A DNA stretch of 64,000 nt from Halioglobus sp. GTDB lineage: Bacteria > Pseudomonadota > Gammaproteobacteria > Pseudomonadales > Halieaceae. Made by a program: the position numbers and the translations under genes. How positions within the stretch are numbered: the stretch's first letter is position 1; every line of letters starts with the position of its first letter. The notes beneath the pieces are model-generated. The model was given only the letters and a program-made list of their open reading frames with translations. It did not search any database and was not told the origin of the DNA. The stretch spans positions 195,237-259,236 of the forward strand of contig JBDWAD010000017.1 of the NCBI GenBank assembly GCA_039979015.1, in the 5' to 3' direction. Positions 10,661 to 50,231 of the stretch are shown piece by piece.

Positions 10661-11398
10661 ATGCAGATCGCACTGGTAAGTCTGTTTCCGGAGATGTTCG
10701 AGGCCGTCAGTGCGCATGGCGTTACTGGTAGGGCGGTGAAGCAGGGTCTGGTTCAGGTGAGCCATCACAACCCGCGAGATTACACCACCGACAAGCATCG
10801 TACGGTGGATGACAGACCTTTTGGCGGTGGCCCGGGTATGTTGATGAAGATTGACCCTTTGCAGCAGGCGATAGCCGCAGCAAAGGAGGCGACAGGTAAT
10901 GACGCTAAAGTCATCTATTTATCGCCACAGGGTCAGCGACTCGATCACAGCAAGGCTGTGGCACTCTCGCAAGAGGCAGCGCTGGTGCTGGTAGCAGGCC
11001 GCTATGAAGGGGTTGATGAACGCCTGATAGAGGCTGAGGTGGATGAAGAACTATCCATCGGCGATTATGTATTAAGTGGTGGCGAATTGGCCGCCATGGT
11101 GGTCATCGATTCGGTGGCACGCCAGTTGCCAGGTGTATTGGGGCATGAGCTTTCTGCGCAAGAGGATTCATATGCAGATGGATTGCTGGATTGCCCGCAC
11201 TACACCAGGCCAGAAGAGTACCAGGGTAAACAGGTACCGGATGTATTGCTCAGCGGCAATCACGAAAAGATTCGCCGCTGGCGCCTGAAGCAGGCATTGG
11301 GCAGGACGCAGGAGCGTCGCCCAGACTTGCTGCAGGGCAGGCCGATGACGGCTGAAGAGAATGAATTGCTGGCGGAATATCTCCGCGAGCAGAGTTAA
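10661..11398 (+). CDS. trmD: tRNA (guanine37-N1)-methyltransferase
   Basis: 245 aa, ...[10 protein letters not shown]...GGGPGMLMK...[10 protein letters not shown]...[16 protein letters not shown]... are typical TrmD motifs. Confidence 0.96.
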
Positions 11399-42907: not shown

Positions 42908-44632
42908 TTAATCCATCGCTGCATGTGCACCAGCAACATAGCCGAACACCATAGCGGGTCCCAGTGTTGCACCGGGGCCTGGGTAAGCAGGCAACAGTGC
43001 TGCAGTGGTATTACCGCAGGCATACAGACCTTTTATAACGGTACCGTCTTCCTGCAGTACTCGTGCACACTCATCGATGACCAGGCCTCCTGCTGTTCCC
43101 ATCTCGCCCGGGTAAAGCGCCACAGCATAGAAGGGTGGCTTGAGCAACGGTGCGAGGCAGGGGTTAGGTTTTACTTCGGGGTCGGCGTAGTAGCGGTCAT
43201 AACTTGAGTCGCCGCGCTGATAGTCACTGTCTTTGCCATCACTGGCGAACTGGTTAAAGGCATTAACGGTACTTTGCAATCCTTCCGGGTCAATGCCCAC
43301 TTTTCTCGCTAACTCATCCAGGCTATCGGCTTTACTCAGAAACTCTGGTGTCCACCAGTCTTTAGGAATCATCCAATCGGGAAAGAATTTGCCCTGTATA
43401 AGCACGGATGCGACCGGACGCTGTCGCCTGAAGTCAGCGTCAAAAATCATATAACTGGGAATATTTTCTTCGTCCTTAATCATGTCGGCAACAAAACTCA
43501 CGTAATTTTGCGATTCGTTACTGAAGCGCCTACCTTTCTTATTGACCGTAATGGAGCCAGCCATGCCTTTTTCCACCTGGCTCAAATAGGCTTTGGGTTT
43601 GCCGGGTACAGTAGCGGTGGTGAACCACCATCCCCAGTCCATCTGAGCCGTGCCGGCGCCTAACTGCTGGGCAGCGACTATCGCGTCACCCGTGTTATGA
43701 AGGTTTCCAGCGCTCCAGCGAGTGTCTGTAGGTGAGGGTAAGTATTGCTCTCTCATTTTTTGGTTGCGCTCAAAGCCGCCAGCCGCCAGCACCACGCCCT
43801 TGTGTGCTCGAACGAATTCACGCTGCTCGTTGTGCTCTATGACGATGCCAACGACTTGATCTCCATCCTGAATCAGTTCAAGCATGGTTGTGTTGCGCCA
43901 CAGCGGAATCTGCCGATCCCGCACCGCCAGGAAAAGGCGGGCCACGCCTGCGTTGCCCATAGTGAGTCTGGCGTCGCGAAGGGTTTTTAGTCGAGTGGGA
44001 AAGTCGATCAGGTATTTGAGTACCAATTTAGCCGCCAAGGCAAACCAGCCTCGCGTCGCGGCCAAGACGACAGCGCCCTCCACCTGGGTAAAGTTAATGC
44101 CGCCAGGCATTTGCGTCTGCGGGTGTTGAGGCGCGAGATTGTGGAAGTCTTCGCCCAGTGCGCTGGCGTGCAGGGGTTCGGGTTCCATGGAACGATTGCC
44201 AGTTTTGCCGCCTGGTCCATCGGGAAAATAGTCTGGATAGTAAGCGAGATTGCGATAGCGCACCCACTGGGTGTTTTCATGCAGGTAATCGATTACCTCC
44301 GGACCACGTGTCAGGTAGGTTTCCAGCAAGGCTGGGTTAACTTTGCCGAAAGGGGTTACATGATCCAGATAAGCCCTGGCGTCCTCAAGGGAATCGTCAG
44401 CCCCATCTGCTCTGGCATAGCGGTTGTTCGGAATCCATACGCCACCACCCGAGCTGGCGCTAGTGCCGCCAAAGTGTTCCGATTTTTCGACAACGAGTGT
44501 TCTGGCACCTCCATCCGATGCCGCAATCGCAGCGGTCAGCGCCCCATTGCCAGAGCCCACAACGACCGCGTCGAATTCGTGATCCCACTGGTCTACATCC
44601 TCAGCATTCAACGCATTGCTCTCCTTAAACAT
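42908..44632 (-). CDS. FAD-dependent oxidoreductase of the 3-ketosteroid-delta1-dehydrogenase / fumarate-reductase flavoprotein family
   Basis: 574 aa with the dinucleotide fold DAVVVGSGNGALTAAIAASDGGARTLVVEKSEHFGGTSASSGGGVWIP and the C-terminal ...GLYACGNTTAAL... motif. Confidence 0.85.
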   Translation of the reverse strand: MFKESNALNAEDVDQWDHEFDAVVVGSGNGALTAAIAASDGGARTLVVEKSEHFGGTSASSGGGVWIPNNRYARADGADDSLEDARAYLDHVTPFGKVNPALLETYLTRGPEVIDYLHENTQWVRYRNLAYYPDYFPDGPGGKTGNRSMEPEPLHASALGEDFHNLAPQHPQTQMPGGINFTQVEGAVVLAATRGWFALAAKLVLKYLIDFPTRLKTLRDARLTMGNAGVARLFLAVRDRQIPLWRNTTMLELIQDGDQVVGIVIEHNEQREFVRAHKGVVLAAGGFERNQKMREQYLPSPTDTRWSAGNLHNTGDAIVAAQQLGAGTAQMDWGWWFTTATVPGKPKAYLSQVEKGMAGSITVNKKGRRFSNESQNYVSFVADMIKDEENIPSYMIFDADFRRQRPVASVLIQGKFFPDWMIPKDWWTPEFLSKADSLDELARKVGIDPEGLQSTVNAFNQFASDGKDSDYQRGDSSYDRYYADPEVKPNPCLAPLLKPPFYAVALYPGEMGTAGGLVIDECARVLQEDGTVIKGLYACGNTTAALLPAYPGPGATLGPAMVFGYVAGAHAAMD

Positions 44633-44766
44633 CTTCCCCGATCAAATTCTGTCACCCGGGATTTGCCTTTAATAACTTGGCAAGTATAGGCATAAACACA
44701 GTCAAGCTGTGCCTTCAATGTTGATGGGCCGGTAAGCCACCAACCGCAATTTCCTGAAATAGGTCG

Positions 44767-44813
44767 CAAAATGCGAATTAAAACGCGATTTGATATGCGT
44801 TAAAAACGCGTAT
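44767..44813. promoter_or_regulatory. Cluster of AAAA(C/T)GCG-type repeats, candidate enhancer (UAS) for a sigma-54 activator
   Basis: AAAATGCGAATT, TAAAACGCGATT and TAAAAACGCGTAT are direct copies. ATATGCGTT is an inverted copy between them. The cluster lies 50-100 nt upstream of the -24 element. Confidence 0.4.
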
Positions 44814-44862
44814 GAAGAGCCGTTGATTCTAAATACCACTGATTCTTATAGACTTTTTTTGT

Positions 44863-44878
44863 TGGCACGAGCATTGCA
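44863..44878 (+). promoter_or_regulatory. Sigma-54 (RpoN) -24/-12 promoter TGGCAC-GAGCA-TTGCA
   Basis: Exact match to TGGCAC-N5-TTGCW (GG-N10-GC). It is intergenic, correctly oriented, and ~75 nt upstream of the csrA-like ATG. Confidence 0.65.
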
Positions 44879-44953
44879 GTTTAAAACGAGCAGGCAAAAC
44901 CGCGACGTAATAATCTACAGCTTGCAAACACCAAAAAACGAAGGGAGTTCATT

Positions 44954-45217
44954 ATGTTGGTACTGTCTCGAAAAGCAGGTGAGTCATTGGTCATCGGAGA
45001 TGACATCGTAATAACAGTATTGGAAATTCGGAGTCAGCAAATTCGCATTGGCATTAGCGCACCGCGAGAGGTGGACGTTCACAGAGAAGAAGTCTACGAA
45101 CGAATTGCCGCTGAAGATCATGCAGGAACGCTAGAATTGCCGGCTATAGATCACGTTCACCGAGAGGCGCGCAGCACGAATCACCTGAGGAGAAGGAAAG
45201 TGGGGCAGAGGATATGA
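44954..45217 (+). CDS. csrA: CsrA/RsmA-family RNA-binding protein, paralog with a ~30-aa C-terminal extension
   Basis: [51 protein letters not shown] is collinear with CsrA, with L4 and R44 conserved. AAGGGAG lies 6 nt upstream of the ATG. The length is 87 aa versus ~61 for canonical CsrA. Confidence 0.88.
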
Positions 45218-45429
45218 GCTCAGCTTTTATCTATGGAGGTCGAGACAAAGTCTGCCTCCCATGGGCGGACCTAGAGTCTGCTGGCTTCAAGAGGTCTGAA
45301 CCGCAAACTCTTTCAGTTACGGCCAAGCCTGCCCTGACGGCTAATCCTGCCTATGTCTACGGTGGGATTGATCGAGAACCTGTTGAGTGGCGCACAGAGA
45401 ACGAGCCGTCAGATTTCTCGATCGAGTAA
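45214..45429 (+). CDS. Hypothetical 71-aa protein with two YGGxD...W repeats, translationally coupled to the CsrA paralog
   Basis: ATGA start/stop overlap. The repeats [14 protein letters not shown] (residues 4-17) and [14 protein letters not shown] (residues 46-59) are conserved at the protein level but diverged at the DNA level. I recognise no family. Confidence 0.55.
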
Positions 45430-45482
45430 GCTGTAGGCCAAGCCGGATTGCTCAAGCCTGGGGATGCTAGCGTCTTCCCGGG

Positions 45483-46664
45483 TCAATCCTGTCTATAGTC
45501 TCTGATTGTTTGAAGAAGCTCGCGTACGGCTTCAATCTCCTTTGTCGATAGCTCGGGTCGCCAGATTTCGAAGATCAACACTATTCTGTCCTGAGCGCTG
45601 TGATTCCAGGCCTCATGCTCAATTGAGTCGTCGAAAATGATGAGCTCCCCTTCAACCCAGTCGCGACTCTCGTTACCTACACGCAGCTGCCCGCAATTTT
45701 CGGGCACTATTAGGGGCAGGTGACATATTAGGCGAGTGTTAAAAAATCCATGGTGCGCTGGAATACTGGTGCCCGCCTTCAACCGCGAGAATAAAACGTT
45801 TGGCGAGCCGCCAGGAATTGTCGCCAGCGGCAATTGCCTGAGTAAGGCTATTGTCTGAGAAAACATCTCCTCAATTGACTCGTTAAGCTTGCCGTCTTTC
45901 CAGAGGTAAAGTGCCCCCCAGCTCTCGTTGCCCCAAATTTTTCCTGAATTGACTCTAGGTAAAGCTTGCGTTTCCTGTAGGTAGGGCTCGAACTCAATGC
46001 CATGGATTATAGACTGCTGCAATTCTTGCTTGATCGTAGCTGTTTTCGCTTGGAGCGCTTTGGTCCACTTAAACTGACTGGGTTCAAAGAACTGAATGTG
46101 GGGAAGCTCCGGGAAAAAGAACTTTGATGGCTGCTGGGGATAAAACTGTTTTTTTCCTAAGCTGATGGATAGCGCCTGACCGAAACGAGGGCTTATTTGG
46201 TTACCATCCAGTTTCTTCGCTACAAGTTCTCGTTCTAGAAAGTCCAGTTGCCTTTCAGCGACTTCCTTACAGCGTTGTTCTGCACGTGCAGACTGGGCTG
46301 CTAGATCAGGAGGCACAGACTCCATACTTTGAATAACTTGAAGCAGCGATTGGTAGAAAATCGCAGCGCTATCCATTTCCGCGCAGTGCCAAAGGTGGTC
46401 TGCTTTGAATAACAGAGCCTGAGGGCTGCGTGGTTCGATTAATAGTGCGCGATTGACCGCGTCCAGGGCCCCATCTTGGTCTTTACAGTTTCCACACGCA
46501 TATGCCAGCCCCATCCAAAGTTGAACGTTCTTGCGAGCTGCATCAAGGAGGGGATCCTCGCTAAGAAGGAGTGCTTGGAATCCCTGGCGCGCGAGTTCAT
46601 GTTGCCCGCTTTGTAGAGCTTTCACGGCATTGTTTACCCGCTCTTGCAGTGCCTGCCTAGTCAA
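45483..46664 (-). CDS. TPR-repeat + aspartyl/asparaginyl beta-hydroxylase (2OG/Fe(II) oxygenase, PF05118-like) protein
   Basis: 393 aa, TTG start with GGAG 7 nt upstream. The N-terminal half has TPR-like helices. The C-terminal half carries ...LKAGTSIPAHHGFFNTRLICHLPLIVP...IIFDDSIEHEAWNHS... Confidence 0.82.
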   Translation of the reverse strand: MTRQALQERVNNAVKALQSGQHELARQGFQALLLSEDPLLDAARKNVQLWMGLAYACGNCKDQDGALDAVNRALLIEPRSPQALLFKADHLWHCAEMDSAAIFYQSLLQVIQSMESVPPDLAAQSARAEQRCKEVAERQLDFLERELVAKKLDGNQISPRFGQALSISLGKKQFYPQQPSKFFFPELPHIQFFEPSQFKWTKALQAKTATIKQELQQSIIHGIEFEPYLQETQALPRVNSGKIWGNESWGALYLWKDGKLNESIEEMFSQTIALLRQLPLATIPGGSPNVLFSRLKAGTSIPAHHGFFNTRLICHLPLIVPENCGQLRVGNESRDWVEGELIIFDDSIEHEAWNHSAQDRIVLIFEIWRPELSTKEIEAVRELLQTIRDYRQD

Positions 46665-46989
46665 GCCCGTACTCCATATATTGAATAGACCTTTGTGAGA
46701 ATTTGCGAATGTGCGCTACAGCAAGCATAGCTAGATTTTAGTCATCGGAAAACACTAATAGATGACGAATTCATACGAACAGCTGACACTATGATCGAAC
46801 TTCGGTCGAGCCTTACTTGTTTTGACCGAGTGGCGGTCTTTTTAGTGGCTGGTCTTAAGCCACTGTTACTTCGTGATTAGAATGGCTTGTCGCAACAGAG
46901 GGCGCTGTCCGGGCCCAATAGTCGTGGTATTCCAGCTTTCAGATTGCTAGATTACTAAAGACAGATTTCGAAGACACCGAGAGTGCAAG

Positions 46990-48273
46990 ATGACCCACAG
47001 CAGCCAATTGCCAGGACTGAAACTCACGGATCACCAATTTGAGCTTCCACTGCGTTATGAGCAACCTGAAGGTCGCCAAATTTCCGTTTATGCCCGAGAG
47101 GTTTGCGCGGTCGAGAGTGTATCAGAGGACCTTCCCTGGCTTGTTTTCCTGCAGGGTGGTCCTGGCTCGGGTGCTCCTCGGCCCATGGGCCGAGGTGGCT
47201 GGATGGGTGAGGCCCTGAAGCGATACCGTCTGCTACTGCTAGATCAACGCGGAACAGCAAGAAGCTCGAGAATAGACGCAACCACTCTAGAGCAGGAAGG
47301 CAGCCCGGAGGCACAGGCAGAATATTTGTCTTGCTTCAGGGCAGATTCGATCGTGCGTGATGCCGAAGCCATCAGAACGCGCCTTGCACGCGGAGCTCAA
47401 TGGACGATTTTGGGGCAGAGCTTCGGCGGATTCTGTGCTTTGAATTACCTGTCGGAATATCCCGAGGGTCTAGCAGCCGTCATGATTACTGGTGGCGTGC
47501 CGCCAATCGGTGTAGAAATTGACGAGGTTTATCGAGCTACGTATAAACGTGTTCTGCAACGCAACCGTCGCTACTATGAACGCTATCCCGAGGATGCTCA
47601 TCGCGTTCGCGAATTATCACGCTATCTGGCGCAAAATGATGTGCGGCTTCCAGGAGGAGCAAGGTTGACTCCTTATGTCCTGCAGCTTTTGGGGCTGGAA
47701 TTTGGCTTTTCAGATGGATTTGAAGCAATTCATTACCTACTTGAAGAGGCCTTTGTCGACACACCTGATGGCCCAGTGCCTTCTTACAACCTGCTGCACG
47801 GCATGGCGAATATCCTACCTTATGAAACAAACCCCATTTTTTCGCTGTTGCATGAAGCTCTTTACTGCGAAGGGAGTGCCTCAAACTGGTCTGCCGCTAG
47901 AGTGCGCAAAGAGTATTCCGAGTTTGACGCGGATGACACCGTACTGTTTTCCGGTGAAATGATTTTCCCCTGGATGTTTGACGTATTCCCTCGTTTGGCC
48001 CCTTTGAAGCCTGCCGCTGAATTGCTCGCCGCGCGAAAGAACTGGCCTGCCCTGTATGATCAAAAAAAGCTGTCTCAAAACAAGGTGCCTATTGCAGCGG
48101 CGGTCTTTGCTGATGACATGTATGTAGAACGAACGTTTTCTGAAGCTGTCGCGGAGCGCGTGCCAAATATGCGTATCTTTTTGACGAACGAATGGGATCA
48201 CAATGCACTTCGGGCGGATACCAAAGCTGTCGTTTTTAAACATCTTCAGCGTATTCTGGATGGGCAGACTTAG
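46990..48273 (+). CDS. Alpha/beta-hydrolase, proline iminopeptidase (S33) family
   Basis: 427 aa with the oxyanion motif FLQGGPGSG and the nucleophile elbow GQSFGG. Confidence 0.82.
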   Translation: MTHSSQLPGLKLTDHQFELPLRYEQPEGRQISVYAREVCAVESVSEDLPWLVFLQGGPGSGAPRPMGRGGWMGEALKRYRLLLLDQRGTARSSRIDATTLEQEGSPEAQAEYLSCFRADSIVRDAEAIRTRLARGAQWTILGQSFGGFCALNYLSEYPEGLAAVMITGGVPPIGVEIDEVYRATYKRVLQRNRRYYERYPEDAHRVRELSRYLAQNDVRLPGGARLTPYVLQLLGLEFGFSDGFEAIHYLLEEAFVDTPDGPVPSYNLLHGMANILPYETNPIFSLLHEALYCEGSASNWSAARVRKEYSEFDADDTVLFSGEMIFPWMFDVFPRLAPLKPAAELLAARKNWPALYDQKKLSQNKVPIAAAVFADDMYVERTFSEAVAERVPNMRIFLTNEWDHNALRADTKAVVFKHLQRILDGQT

Positions 48274-48276
48274 GTA

Positions 48277-49824
48277 ATGAACGACAAACAAATAGTCAGC
48301 GACCATGGCCCTGACTCCATCACGGTCAAGGACCTGGAGCAGTTGGGTATATTTGCTGCACTGGGCAGCCTCGGCTACGTGTTTTGGGTTTGCGGCGGTA
48401 TGGAAGTGGTCGAGCGGTTGGCGTATTACGGGGTGCGCCAGGTGAGTGGTCTATATGCCACTGACGCTGTGTCTCGTGGCGGTCTGGGCCTTAGGGAAAG
48501 TGACCTAGGCATTATATTCGCGATTTGGGCAGTTACCCAGACGTTTGTACCCGTTTTTACTGGCGCCATTTCTGATCGAGTCGGATACAAGCAAACGATA
48601 TTTGTGGCGACTGTTTTGAAAATCATCGGCTACCTGGTAATGGCCTGGTATGCGACATTTTGGGGCTTTCTCTGTGGTGCCGTCATTTTGGCAATTGGCA
48701 CGGGAGTGTTCAAGCCAGGAATACAGGCCACTATTGTCAAGGCGACCAATCGACGCAATAGTTCAATGGCGTGGGGGGCCTTTTACCAGACAGTAAACAT
48801 CGGCGCGTTTCTTGGCCCCGTAGTCGCAGCACAAATGCGTCAGCTTGCCTGGGAGAATGTGTTTTATGCCTGTGCGGCCATTATTTCTATTAATTTCCTG
48901 CTTTTGCTGATTTACAAAGAGCCTGGAAAAGAAGAACGTCTGGCCCGCCGGGAGGCTCAGCGCGATGGCAGCGAGCAGAGGCTGTCCCTGGTTGCAGAGA
49001 GCTTGCGAGAGTTAAGAAGCCCTATTTTGCTGTGGTATGTAGCACTCATCAGTGGTTTTTATTTCATGCTTTATATGATTTGGGATGTCGGGCCACTGTA
49101 TTTTCGCGATTGGGTGGATACGCGACCTCTGGTAGAAGCACTGTTTGGCTCGGAAGGAACAGATAATAAGTTCTGGATTTTTTTCCTTGGCTTATCTAAA
49201 GACGGTCAAGTAATGCTGCCTGAAGGGCTCATCAACCTCAACGCGATGTTAATTATGTTCACCTGTTTTTTGATCGCCGGTGTCTCTGCTCGACTTAAGG
49301 CTGTGAACTCAATGGCTATAGGGAGCTTTCTCGCTTCTAGCGCATTGATTGTATTTGGCGGTTGGACTGGGGTTTGGTTTGTTGTCATGGGTATCGTTCT
49401 TTTTTCAATTGGGGAAATGTTATCCGCCCCCAAAAGCAGTGAATATCTTGGCAACATTGCCCCCGCAGACAAAAAAGCGATGTTTCTGGGTTTTTCACAA
49501 ATTCCACTCGGAATAGGCTGGTCGCTCGAAAGTTATTTGGGGCCGACTTTGTACGGCAAGTTTGCTTCAAAAGAACAGCTCTCCAGGCCGCTATTGGGCG
49601 AGCTTGGTATGAGCGAAGTGCAAATTCGGGGAATACCCAATGGCGAGGCCTTCGATACGCTGGTACGTTTGAGTGGGCAGGCGCCCGAAGTGATTACTGC
49701 CCAGATATACATGGCGAATAACGTAGGGGCTATTTGGTATCTAATGGCCTCAGCGGGAATGATCACGGCTTTCGGGTTGTACGTATATGGTCGTTGGACG
49801 TATCGTTTGATTAGTCCGACATGA
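48277..49824 (+). CDS. MFS transporter of the POT/PTR2 (proton-dependent oligopeptide transporter) family
   Basis: 515 aa polytopic protein. EVVERLAYYG matches the POT ExxER(F)xYYG signature. It starts 3 nt after the iminopeptidase stop. Confidence 0.8.
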   Translation: MNDKQIVSDHGPDSITVKDLEQLGIFAALGSLGYVFWVCGGMEVVERLAYYGVRQVSGLYATDAVSRGGLGLRESDLGIIFAIWAVTQTFVPVFTGAISDRVGYKQTIFVATVLKIIGYLVMAWYATFWGFLCGAVILAIGTGVFKPGIQATIVKATNRRNSSMAWGAFYQTVNIGAFLGPVVAAQMRQLAWENVFYACAAIISINFLLLLIYKEPGKEERLARREAQRDGSEQRLSLVAESLRELRSPILLWYVALISGFYFMLYMIWDVGPLYFRDWVDTRPLVEALFGSEGTDNKFWIFFLGLSKDGQVMLPEGLINLNAMLIMFTCFLIAGVSARLKAVNSMAIGSFLASSALIVFGGWTGVWFVVMGIVLFSIGEMLSAPKSSEYLGNIAPADKKAMFLGFSQIPLGIGWSLESYLGPTLYGKFASKEQLSRPLLGELGMSEVQIRGIPNGEAFDTLVRLSGQAPEVITAQIYMANNVGAIWYLMASAGMITAFGLYVYGRWTYRLISPT

Positions 49825-49885: not shown

Positions 49886-50110
49886 TTAGTTTTCATTATT
49901 TTCGTACGTTAAGCGTCTCAGCATCCCCTCCAGCCCATTGAGTTTCACTTCATACATAAGTGCCAGCTGAGACCCCAGCTTGGTCTGGGGAAAGCCTTTG
50001 CTGTGGTACCACACCAGATAGGGCTCGGGCAGATCAAGCAGCGATCTGCCCTTGTATTTGCCATAGGGCATTATCTGATTGATGGCATCTAACAAGTCCT
50101 TGTTATTCAT
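49886..50110 (-). CDS. DUF3820-family small protein
   Basis: MNNKDLLDAINQIMPYGKYKGRSLLDLPEPYLVWYHSKGFPQTKLGSQLALMYEVKLNGLE shows the DUF3820 pattern (F/MPFGKYKG..L.DLP..YL.W). The ORF-track start at 50152 adds 14 unlikely residues. Confidence 0.75.
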   Translation of the reverse strand: MNNKDLLDAINQIMPYGKYKGRSLLDLPEPYLVWYHSKGFPQTKLGSQLALMYEVKLNGLEGMLRRLTYENNEN

Positions 50111-50231
50111 TCGGACTGCAAGCCCCTCGACTGAGTCATTCCGATGTCGCAAGTGAGATTCAATACGCGCTCAATGCAGTACAGTTTGTGTGTTTTATCG
50201 CTATGGATTAAAAATGACCTCTGTTCCGATT

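Follow-up and report, generated by a model that had tools for sequence, protein, structure and literature searches.

Whether a CsrA protein can be produced together with a small protein that controls it, and what would switch on such a pair, is the question raised by a locus in a 64,000-nucleotide stretch of a Halioglobus sp. genome (Halieaceae; hereafter the window). In this locus, a gene for a long-tailed CsrA paralog overlaps a 71-residue open reading frame (ORF) with two copies of a short motif, and a sigma-54 promoter element precedes both. CsrA is among the most widespread post-transcriptional regulators of bacteria, and small RNA (sRNA) sponges are generally regarded as the main means of controlling it in Gammaproteobacteria; to our knowledge, FliW and CesT are the only kinds of CsrA protein partner. 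The reading favored here, to which we give a probability of about one half, is that of a sigma-54 operon activated by a LuxO-type protein, which would encode the CsrA paralog along with a disordered, bivalent partner that probably engages the CsrA dimer. The promoter, the paralog and the repeat ORF had been pointed out in a preliminary description of the window, and the coordinates of all features are given in Table 1.

The small ORF, judging from its sequence, is almost certainly a real gene under selection that belongs to an undescribed family. A word-indexed search retrieved one homolog (P0001, 44% identity, likewise 71 residues), and a profile search of 1.84 billion representatives gave 21 hits, one of which is spurious (P0018, a 513-residue repeat protein). 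The family thus defined has about 20 representatives of 64-87 residues, and follows the pattern M-S-x-x-[FY]-x-[YH]-G-G-[IL]-D-R-x4-W, then a linker, then [FY]-x-[YH]-G-G-[IL]-D-R-x4-W. In all members, motif 1 has its first position at residue 5 of the mature ORF, and each motif carries an invariant Asp and, with a single exception, a Trp located 12 residues past the first position. The spacing from motif to motif is 41-48 residues with a median of 46, the linker being unconserved in sequence and rich in Ser, Ala, Gly, Thr, Arg, and Pro. In the window, the DNAs of the two motifs are about 56% identical by eye and differ at nearly every third codon position, as expected from the preliminary claim that the repeats are kept as protein and diverged as DNA; the motifs are also conserved across the family. 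Moreover, conservation and purifying selection, which had been named as checks on this ORF, are apparent from its roughly 20 relatives and from the ratio of nonsynonymous to synonymous substitution rates (dN/dS) in comparison with the closest relative, locus L001, which is 0.19 and 0.10 in motifs 1 and 2, respectively, against 0.70 in the linker. An AlphaFold2 model built from a 14-sequence alignment has a mean predicted local distance difference test score (pLDDT) of 58 and no secondary structure, so the protein is predicted to be disordered. No match was found in Pfam, NCBIfam, PDB (sequence profile), PHROGs, or PADLOC, which agrees with the earlier failure to recognize any named family, and the source annotations, where there are any, name it a hypothetical protein. 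One variant member, P0016 (87 residues; locus L024, 442-705), has no Trp after motif 2 and bears a basic C-terminal extension, its end overlapping a convergent gene.

The product of the upstream gene is a bona fide CsrA-family protein whose core for binding GGA-containing RNA is predicted to be intact. It matches the Pfam CsrA family (PF02599) over residues 1-52 with E=2e-26 and 92 bits (cut-off 27), and the NCBIfam models NF002469 with 95 bits (cut-off 73) and TIGR00202 with 87.6 bits (cut-off 70.1). These matches, together with the retention of L4 and R44, bear out the collinearity with CsrA that had been noticed at first, and the His/Arg-rich tail of about 30 residues is also confirmed. The best PDB matches are gammaproteobacterial CsrA/RsmE structures at about 69 bits, the FliW-type CsrA from Geobacillus (5dmb) reaching 58 bits. 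The paralog of the window keeps L2, L4, R6, V40, V42, and R44 (E. coli numbering), which published mutagenesis marks as the RNA-binding residues in β1 and β5. In the alignment of the paralogs, M1, L2, R6, H43, R44, and E46 are invariant and L4 is nearly so, and the dN/dS of the core is about 0.02 in comparison with L001. An AlphaFold2 model of the monomer shows strands at residues 11-14, 18-26, and 29-35 and a helix at 44-57, with a core pLDDT of 85-92; the tail is predicted to be disordered, with a pLDDT below 50 for residues 60-87. No canonical csrA is found elsewhere in the window, the status of the paralog as an extra copy being putative, and no natural fusion of CsrA with the partner is found among the long CsrA homologs.

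The two genes are linked well beyond the window. The DNA around family members was taken from genomes, metagenomes, and read assemblies, the metagenomes being scanned with an alignment of a 10-sequence subset. In 12 of 13 independent lineages, a CsrA of 77-87 residues is followed by the small ORF with the same four-nucleotide ATGA overlap, these lineages being, from 1 to 12, the window, L001, L014-L017, L002, L007 and L008, L003, L005 and L006, L004, L012 and L013, L022 and L023, L024, and L025. Thus, the survey of long-tailed CsrA paralogs and YGGxD-repeat ORFs that had been suggested returns them as a pair, and the overlap, which stands in the window where it was first described together with the 71-residue ORF, implies translational coupling of the two genes. 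The flanking genes differ between lineages: in the window and L001 the upstream neighbor encodes a flavin adenine dinucleotide (FAD) oxidoreductase, a gene for QSregVF_b and an M28 peptidase gene lie downstream in L001 and L014, a TonB-receptor gene lies upstream and an MFS-transporter gene downstream in L002 and L007, and cupin and beta-lactamase-family genes flank the module in L012. The csrA paralog and the small ORF thus travel together as a unit.

Where named, the members of this cluster are Halieaceae (Halioglobus, Haliea, and Candidatus Seongchinamella marina IMCC8485), one lineage being labeled Xanthomonadales, and the next-closest CsrAs outside the clade are FliW-linked flagellar CsrAs, which come without the small ORF. 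A csrA paralog more than 90% identical to that of L014 is present in cultured relatives, for example in Ca. Seongchinamella marina IMCC8485 (WP_279251749.1). The family gave no hits on viral contigs. The csrA paralog has a GC content of 0.50, the small ORF one of 0.53, and the intergenic region one of 0.42, against 0.535 for the 64-kb window, and a recount returns the 27/60 reported earlier for positions 44941-45000; this ordinary composition gives no sign of foreign origin. A phage or mobile origin of the module was dropped on these two grounds. As for the closest relative of the module, L001 (GCA_024449815.1, contig JAANSY012212050.1), it lies on a 2.5-kb contig whose accession number in the millions suggests a very fragmented assembly, possibly with a bacterial contaminant or symbiont in a larger, perhaps eukaryotic, genome project.

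Regarding the control of the pair, the -24/-12 element TGGCACGAGCATTGCA is a perfect match to YTGGCACG-N4-TTGCW, with GG at -24, GC at -12, and a 10-nt spacing. It is the sole exact TGGCAC-N5-TTGCW in the 64-kb window, where 0.12 would be expected by chance, and the claim of an intergenic sigma-54 element thus stands exactly as it was made. The GG-N10-GC element is kept in 13 of 13 lineages, for example as TGGCACGAGCTTTGCA, TGGTTCGGCAATTGCA, AGGCATACTTCTTGCA, and TGGAATGACTTTTGCA; its distance to the csrA ATG is 85-102 nt in the 12 lineages that bear csrA, and in a Haliea lineage that has no csrA it stands, as CGGTATAACTGTTGCC, 136 nt before the small ORF. No sigma-70-like promoter is found in 44550-45650. 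A second near-consensus match in the window, TGGCACGCCAGTTGCC at 11115-11130, lies by eye within a coding region with no dyad upstream and is probably due to chance. From the conserved element we infer that transcription depends on sigma-54 and on an activator, and the module is likely to be a sigma-54 operon. The activator would have to be encoded at a distance: as had been said of the surroundings of the locus, no GAFTGA-containing AAA+ activator is encoded in the window, and the same holds for every fetched locus.

An upstream activator sequence would be expected about 80-150 bp upstream of a sigma-54 promoter, and a conserved dyad is found in this range. In the window, the dyad TCGCAAAATGCGA begins 99 nt upstream of the -24 element, and a dyad with at most two mismatches from TTGCA-N3-TGCAA is present 85-121 nt upstream of this element in 12 of 13 lineages. 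When the zone from -140 to -40 of the first 10 lineages was tested with up to two mismatches allowed, 9 of the 10 zones carried the dyad, against a mean of about 0.4 in 10, and never more than 4, for mononucleotide-shuffled zones (a background of 0.046 hits per zone); the three lineages added later all carry it. The copy in L014, TTGCAAAATGCAA at -98, is perfect, and other copies are TCGCATAATGCAA in L001, ATGCAATATGCAA in L007 and L022, ATGCATTTTGCAA in L025, and AGGCATATTGCAA in the csrA-less Haliea lineage (L009-L011). The dyad fits the published LuxO consensus, TTGCA-N3-TGCAA (PMC3352281), which provides a specific candidate type for the previously unidentified activator, and LuxO sites from chromatin immunoprecipitation sequencing in V. 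cholerae include ttgcaaaatgcaa and ttgcaaatcgcga (PMC10328515).

The preliminary description had placed four AAAA(C/T)GCG-like motifs, one of them inverted, at the enhancer position. Three exact AAAAYGCG copies are present (at 44768, 44780, and 44803; the whole 64 kb holds only 8) and the position is that of a conserved enhancer-type dyad, but the "inverted" copy is not an exact reverse complement and corresponds to the left half of the 13-bp dyad TCGCAAAATGCGA. The further repeats between the dyad and the promoter may be extra activator half-sites, and relatives show extra ATGCAA-type copies in their place.

It is an appreciable possibility, which bears on the identity of the activator only and not on the module, that the dyad and the -24/-12 element are read by a sigma-54 activator unrelated to LuxO, the resemblance being a coincidental convergence of short palindromes. 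The dyad has just 10 specified bases, two of them mismatched in the window copy, and no LuxO gene turned up, with no genome-wide search aimed at LuxO having been made. Nonetheless, 12 of 13 lineages keep the dyad at a constant distance, with a perfect copy in L014, and NtrC, NifA, CbrB, and GlrR use half-sites and spacings other than those of the dyad.

Between the dyad and the promoter, CTGATTCTTATAG followed by a T-tract corresponds to a family consensus YTGATTTWT, found with its T-tract at the same offset in 10 of 10 lineages compared (the window and nine others), and this element may act as a DNA-bending site. An IHF site was considered for this position, but YTGATTTWT matches the IHF consensus WATCAANNNNTTR only weakly, and the assignment was dropped. 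The start of transcription is placed near 44889 from the position of the -12 element, which gives a predicted leader of about 65 nt. Its only GGA lies inside the Shine-Dalgarno sequence AAGGGAG, exactly as first described. The autoregulation by CsrA that had been thought conceivable on this basis is possible, the leader GGA being part of the Shine-Dalgarno sequence, but no further indication of it was obtained. The predicted structure of the leader is not significant (z=-0.6) and the stretch 44600-45600 matches no Rfam family at E<=5, on which grounds a Qrr-like or riboswitch leader was dropped.

According to the mechanism proposed here, an NtrC-family enhancer-binding protein encoded elsewhere in the genome would recognize the LuxO-type dyad and fire the promoter about 100 bp away. 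The transcript would give a CsrA paralog with its GGA-RNA-binding core and disordered tail and, by way of the ATGA overlap, a disordered protein of about 70 residues with two copies of a 13-residue linear motif. The latter would bind the symmetric CsrA dimer as a bivalent ligand, each motif taking one of the two equivalent faces and the unconserved linker of constant length acting as a ruler between them. Two equal motifs, kept at a fixed spacing despite an unconserved linker, fit a homodimer with two equivalent sites, and we infer that the small protein binds CsrA, a step on which the balance is close but tips slightly to the negative side. The small protein would then set the free activity of CsrA as an antagonist, chaperone, or partner switch, and it may act on the housekeeping CsrA besides the paralog.

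Several observations weigh against this proposal. In the Haliea lineage represented by L009-L011, promoter, dyad, and small ORF are retained although csrA is absent; at this locus (L009 9780-10219, also in L010 and L011; a Haliea sp. metagenome-assembled genome), the small ORF has its own Shine-Dalgarno sequence, AGGAGG. This indicates that the small protein is not strictly dependent on the paralog and that its target could be a protein other than CsrA. Also, the CsrA tails are entirely different from lineage to lineage, which leaves no evident element dedicated to docking, and the preliminary suggestion that the C-terminal tail contacts the partner, by analogy with the CsrAs that FliW regulates, is weakened by its lack of conservation and predicted disorder. 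Finally, L004 has no dyad within two mismatches, no activator gene is linked to the module, a LuxO ortholog for Halieaceae remaining a candidate, and no published link between LuxO and Halieaceae was found. If CsrA is the target, the csrA-less lineage and the unconserved tails argue for contact with the conserved core rather than the tail, and suggest that the housekeeping CsrA may be a target. In the csrA-less lineage, a remnant of csrA was looked for and rejected, since the sole tblastn match, to the L012 tail, covers six residues (RPRLSL, E=9) and the DNAs show no similarity. The L009 frame just upstream of the small ORF reads ...RRPRLSLGNRR*, which recalls the end of the L012 CsrA tail, ...KRPRLSLPDSREEL, a resemblance that is not significant.

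The main rival explanation, rather unlikely in our estimation, takes the small protein to be the real output of the promoter and directs it to a target other than CsrA, which could be a protease adaptor, the activator of the promoter, or some other dimeric or repeated protein; the CsrA paralog would be merely a co-expressed post-transcriptional regulator that does not contact the small protein directly. The lineage of L009-L011 speaks for it, where GG-N10-GC, dyad, and a small ORF with a strong Shine-Dalgarno sequence of its own persist without csrA, and so does the lack of conservation of the CsrA tail. On the other hand, the ATGA-coupled pairing in 12 of 13 lineages with differing neighborhoods is hard to explain without a functional tie, the two-fold symmetry of the motifs matches that of the CsrA homodimer, and where the paralog is absent, the small protein could still act on the housekeeping CsrA.

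A pair resembling a toxin-antitoxin system, in which excess of the CsrA paralog would inhibit growth, a labile small protein would neutralize it stoichiometrically, and proteolysis would free CsrA, is improbable. The genes are small and translationally coupled, the second product is predicted to be disordered, and the chromosomal context of the module varies by lineage, all of which would suit such a pair. However, no mobile-element genes are consistently near the module, neither viral contigs nor the PADLOC defence-system models give a hit, synteny is stable within the clade of the window, L001, and L014, and a conserved enhancer-dependent sigma-54 promoter is atypical of type II toxin-antitoxin operons, which usually have autoregulated sigma-70 promoters. 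That the small ORF is the precursor of a modified or exported peptide, for example a substrate of the Asp/Asn beta-hydroxylase encoded immediately downstream in the window, is very improbable in spite of the invariant Asp in each motif, because that gene belongs to a window-specific three-gene insertion absent from L001 and L014, which is why a ribosomally synthesized, modified peptide was rejected, because a modifying enzyme or exporter next to the module is conserved in no other lineage, and because no signal-peptide-like or leader-like region is seen by eye in the family sequences.

Table 1. Positions in the window of the module, its control elements, and the adjoining genes.
Feature	Position	Strand	Remarks
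FAD-binding oxidoreductase gene	42908-44632	minus	transcribed divergently from the csrA paralog
Putative activator dyad TCGCAAAATGCGA	44764-44776	.	LuxO-type; TTGCA-N3-TGCAA with two symmetric mismatches
Two further AAAACGCG half-site-like repeats and inverted repeat AACGC-N10-GCGTT	44780-44810	+	candidate extra activator half-sites
CTGATTCTTATAG then T-tract	44839-44860	+	just upstream of the -24 element
Sigma-54 -24/-12 element TGGCACGAGCATTGCA	44863-44878	+	intergenic; last base 75 nt from the ATG at 44954
Predicted 5' leader	44889-44953	+	Shine-Dalgarno AAGGGAG at 44941-44947
csrA paralog, 87 residues	44954-45217	+	core residues 1-54; variable, predicted disordered tail 55-87 (nt 45116-45214)
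ATGA stop/start overlap	45214-45217	+	same overlap in all 12 csrA-bearing lineages
Small ORF, 71 residues	45214-45429	+	founding member, as seen here, of the two-motif family predicted to be disordered
Motif 1	45223-45264	+	residues 4-17; G8, G9, W17 invariant
Motif 2	45349-45390	+	residues 46-59
TPR and Asp/Asn beta-hydroxylase gene	45483-46664	minus	immediately downstream of the small ORF

With regard to the surroundings of the module, a 321-nt intergenic region (44633-44953) separates the FAD-binding oxidoreductase gene from the 87-residue ORF. On the other side, three genes (45483-49824; TPR and Asp/Asn beta-hydroxylase, alpha/beta hydrolase, and MFS transporter) stand between the small ORF and QSregVF_b. 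This block is missing from the closest relatives (L001 and L014-L017), where QSregVF_b directly follows the small ORF, and so it looks like a recent insertion in the window. The QSregVF_b gene itself (49886-50152, minus strand; PF12843, "putative quorum-sensing-regulated virulence factor") is followed by an M28 peptidase gene. Both are next to the module in the lineages of the window, L001, and L014 only and absent from the others; the PF12843 gene is convergent to the module, a curious neighbor for a LuxO-type enhancer.

In comparison with known systems, the module is a lineage-restricted variant, built on a new small-protein family, of the theme of a CsrA with a protein partner. The FliW-CsrA system of Bacillus, Campylobacter, Helicobacter, and others resembles it in that a C-terminally extended CsrA is encoded beside the protein that controls it and is co-expressed with it, and flagellar loci with adjacent fliW and csrA were fetched as a precedent. 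However, the module has no flagellar context, csrA comes first in its gene order, and its partner, of about 70 residues, is disordered, carries two motifs, and has no match to FliW (PF02623). Moreover, its CsrA core is nearer to gammaproteobacterial CsrA/RsmE (69 bits) than to 5dmb (58 bits), and its tail is unconserved. FliW genes are absent from the surroundings of the module, and the gene calls of L001, L007-L017, and L022-L025 contain none. In the case of CesT-CsrA from enteropathogenic E. coli, a protein rather than an RNA binds CsrA and blocks its RNA binding, which demonstrates that a gammaproteobacterial CsrA can be controlled by proteins, and PDB entry 5z38 is among the structure matches of the window paralog. 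Nonetheless, CesT, whose gene lies elsewhere in the genome, is a folded chaperone of type III secretion, whereas the candidate partner described here is predicted to be disordered, is based on repeats, and would be translationally coupled to its own CsrA paralog.

A likeness to the CsrB/RsmZ sRNA sponges is one of function and by analogy only, both having repeated short motifs and a flexible spacer for the two faces of the CsrA dimer. The sponges are multivalent decoy RNAs with GGA loops under GacA/UvrY (sigma-70) control, whereas the motif of the module is a peptide whose binding we only propose. Accessory CsrA paralogs, such as Pseudomonas RsmE/I/N and those borne by plasmids, phages, or integrative and conjugative elements, likewise are additional CsrA copies with variable C-terminal extensions, but the module has no mobile-element context. 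These paralogs and their extensions are reviewed in PMC7366521, where sigma-54/RpoN control of CsrA paralogs is not mentioned. Literature searches turned up no report of a module of this type, of a csrA paralog under sigma-54, or of a LuxO in Halieaceae.

The control region recalls the Vibrio qrr promoters under LuxO and sigma-54, which share the TGGCAC-N5-TTGCA type of -24/-12 element and a TTGCA-N3-TGCAA dyad about 100 bp upstream, and whose product is also a post-transcriptional regulator. Unlike these, the transcript of the module is protein-coding, its products being two proteins rather than an Hfq-dependent Qrr sRNA (no Rfam family matches), and the hosts of the module are Halieaceae (Cellvibrionales) and not Vibrionaceae, with the LuxO ortholog being a candidate. 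A more far-reaching proposal, which we consider doubtful, would be that in Halieaceae a LuxO-type phosphorelay and sigma-54 have as output, instead of Qrr sRNAs, a CsrA paralog and a disordered bivalent CsrA antagonist that clamps both faces of the dimer.

If the reading proposed here is true, a disordered protein with two motifs would be a new and very simple way of titrating a symmetric RNA-binding dimer. On the more far-reaching proposal, it would further add to FliW and CesT a third class of partner, unrelated to either in structure, and be the first disordered CsrA antagonist with bivalent peptide motifs, a protein analog of the CsrB/RsmZ sponges. The two-motif family gives a directly testable peptide motif, and the cultured relatives with a csrA paralog of this kind make experiments feasible, provided that the downstream small ORF is present in the isolate. 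Finally, OM60/NOR5 is an abundant coastal marine group whose regulation is almost unstudied, and in it the LuxO-type enhancer would tie a sigma-54 phosphorelay directly to a Csr-type regulator.

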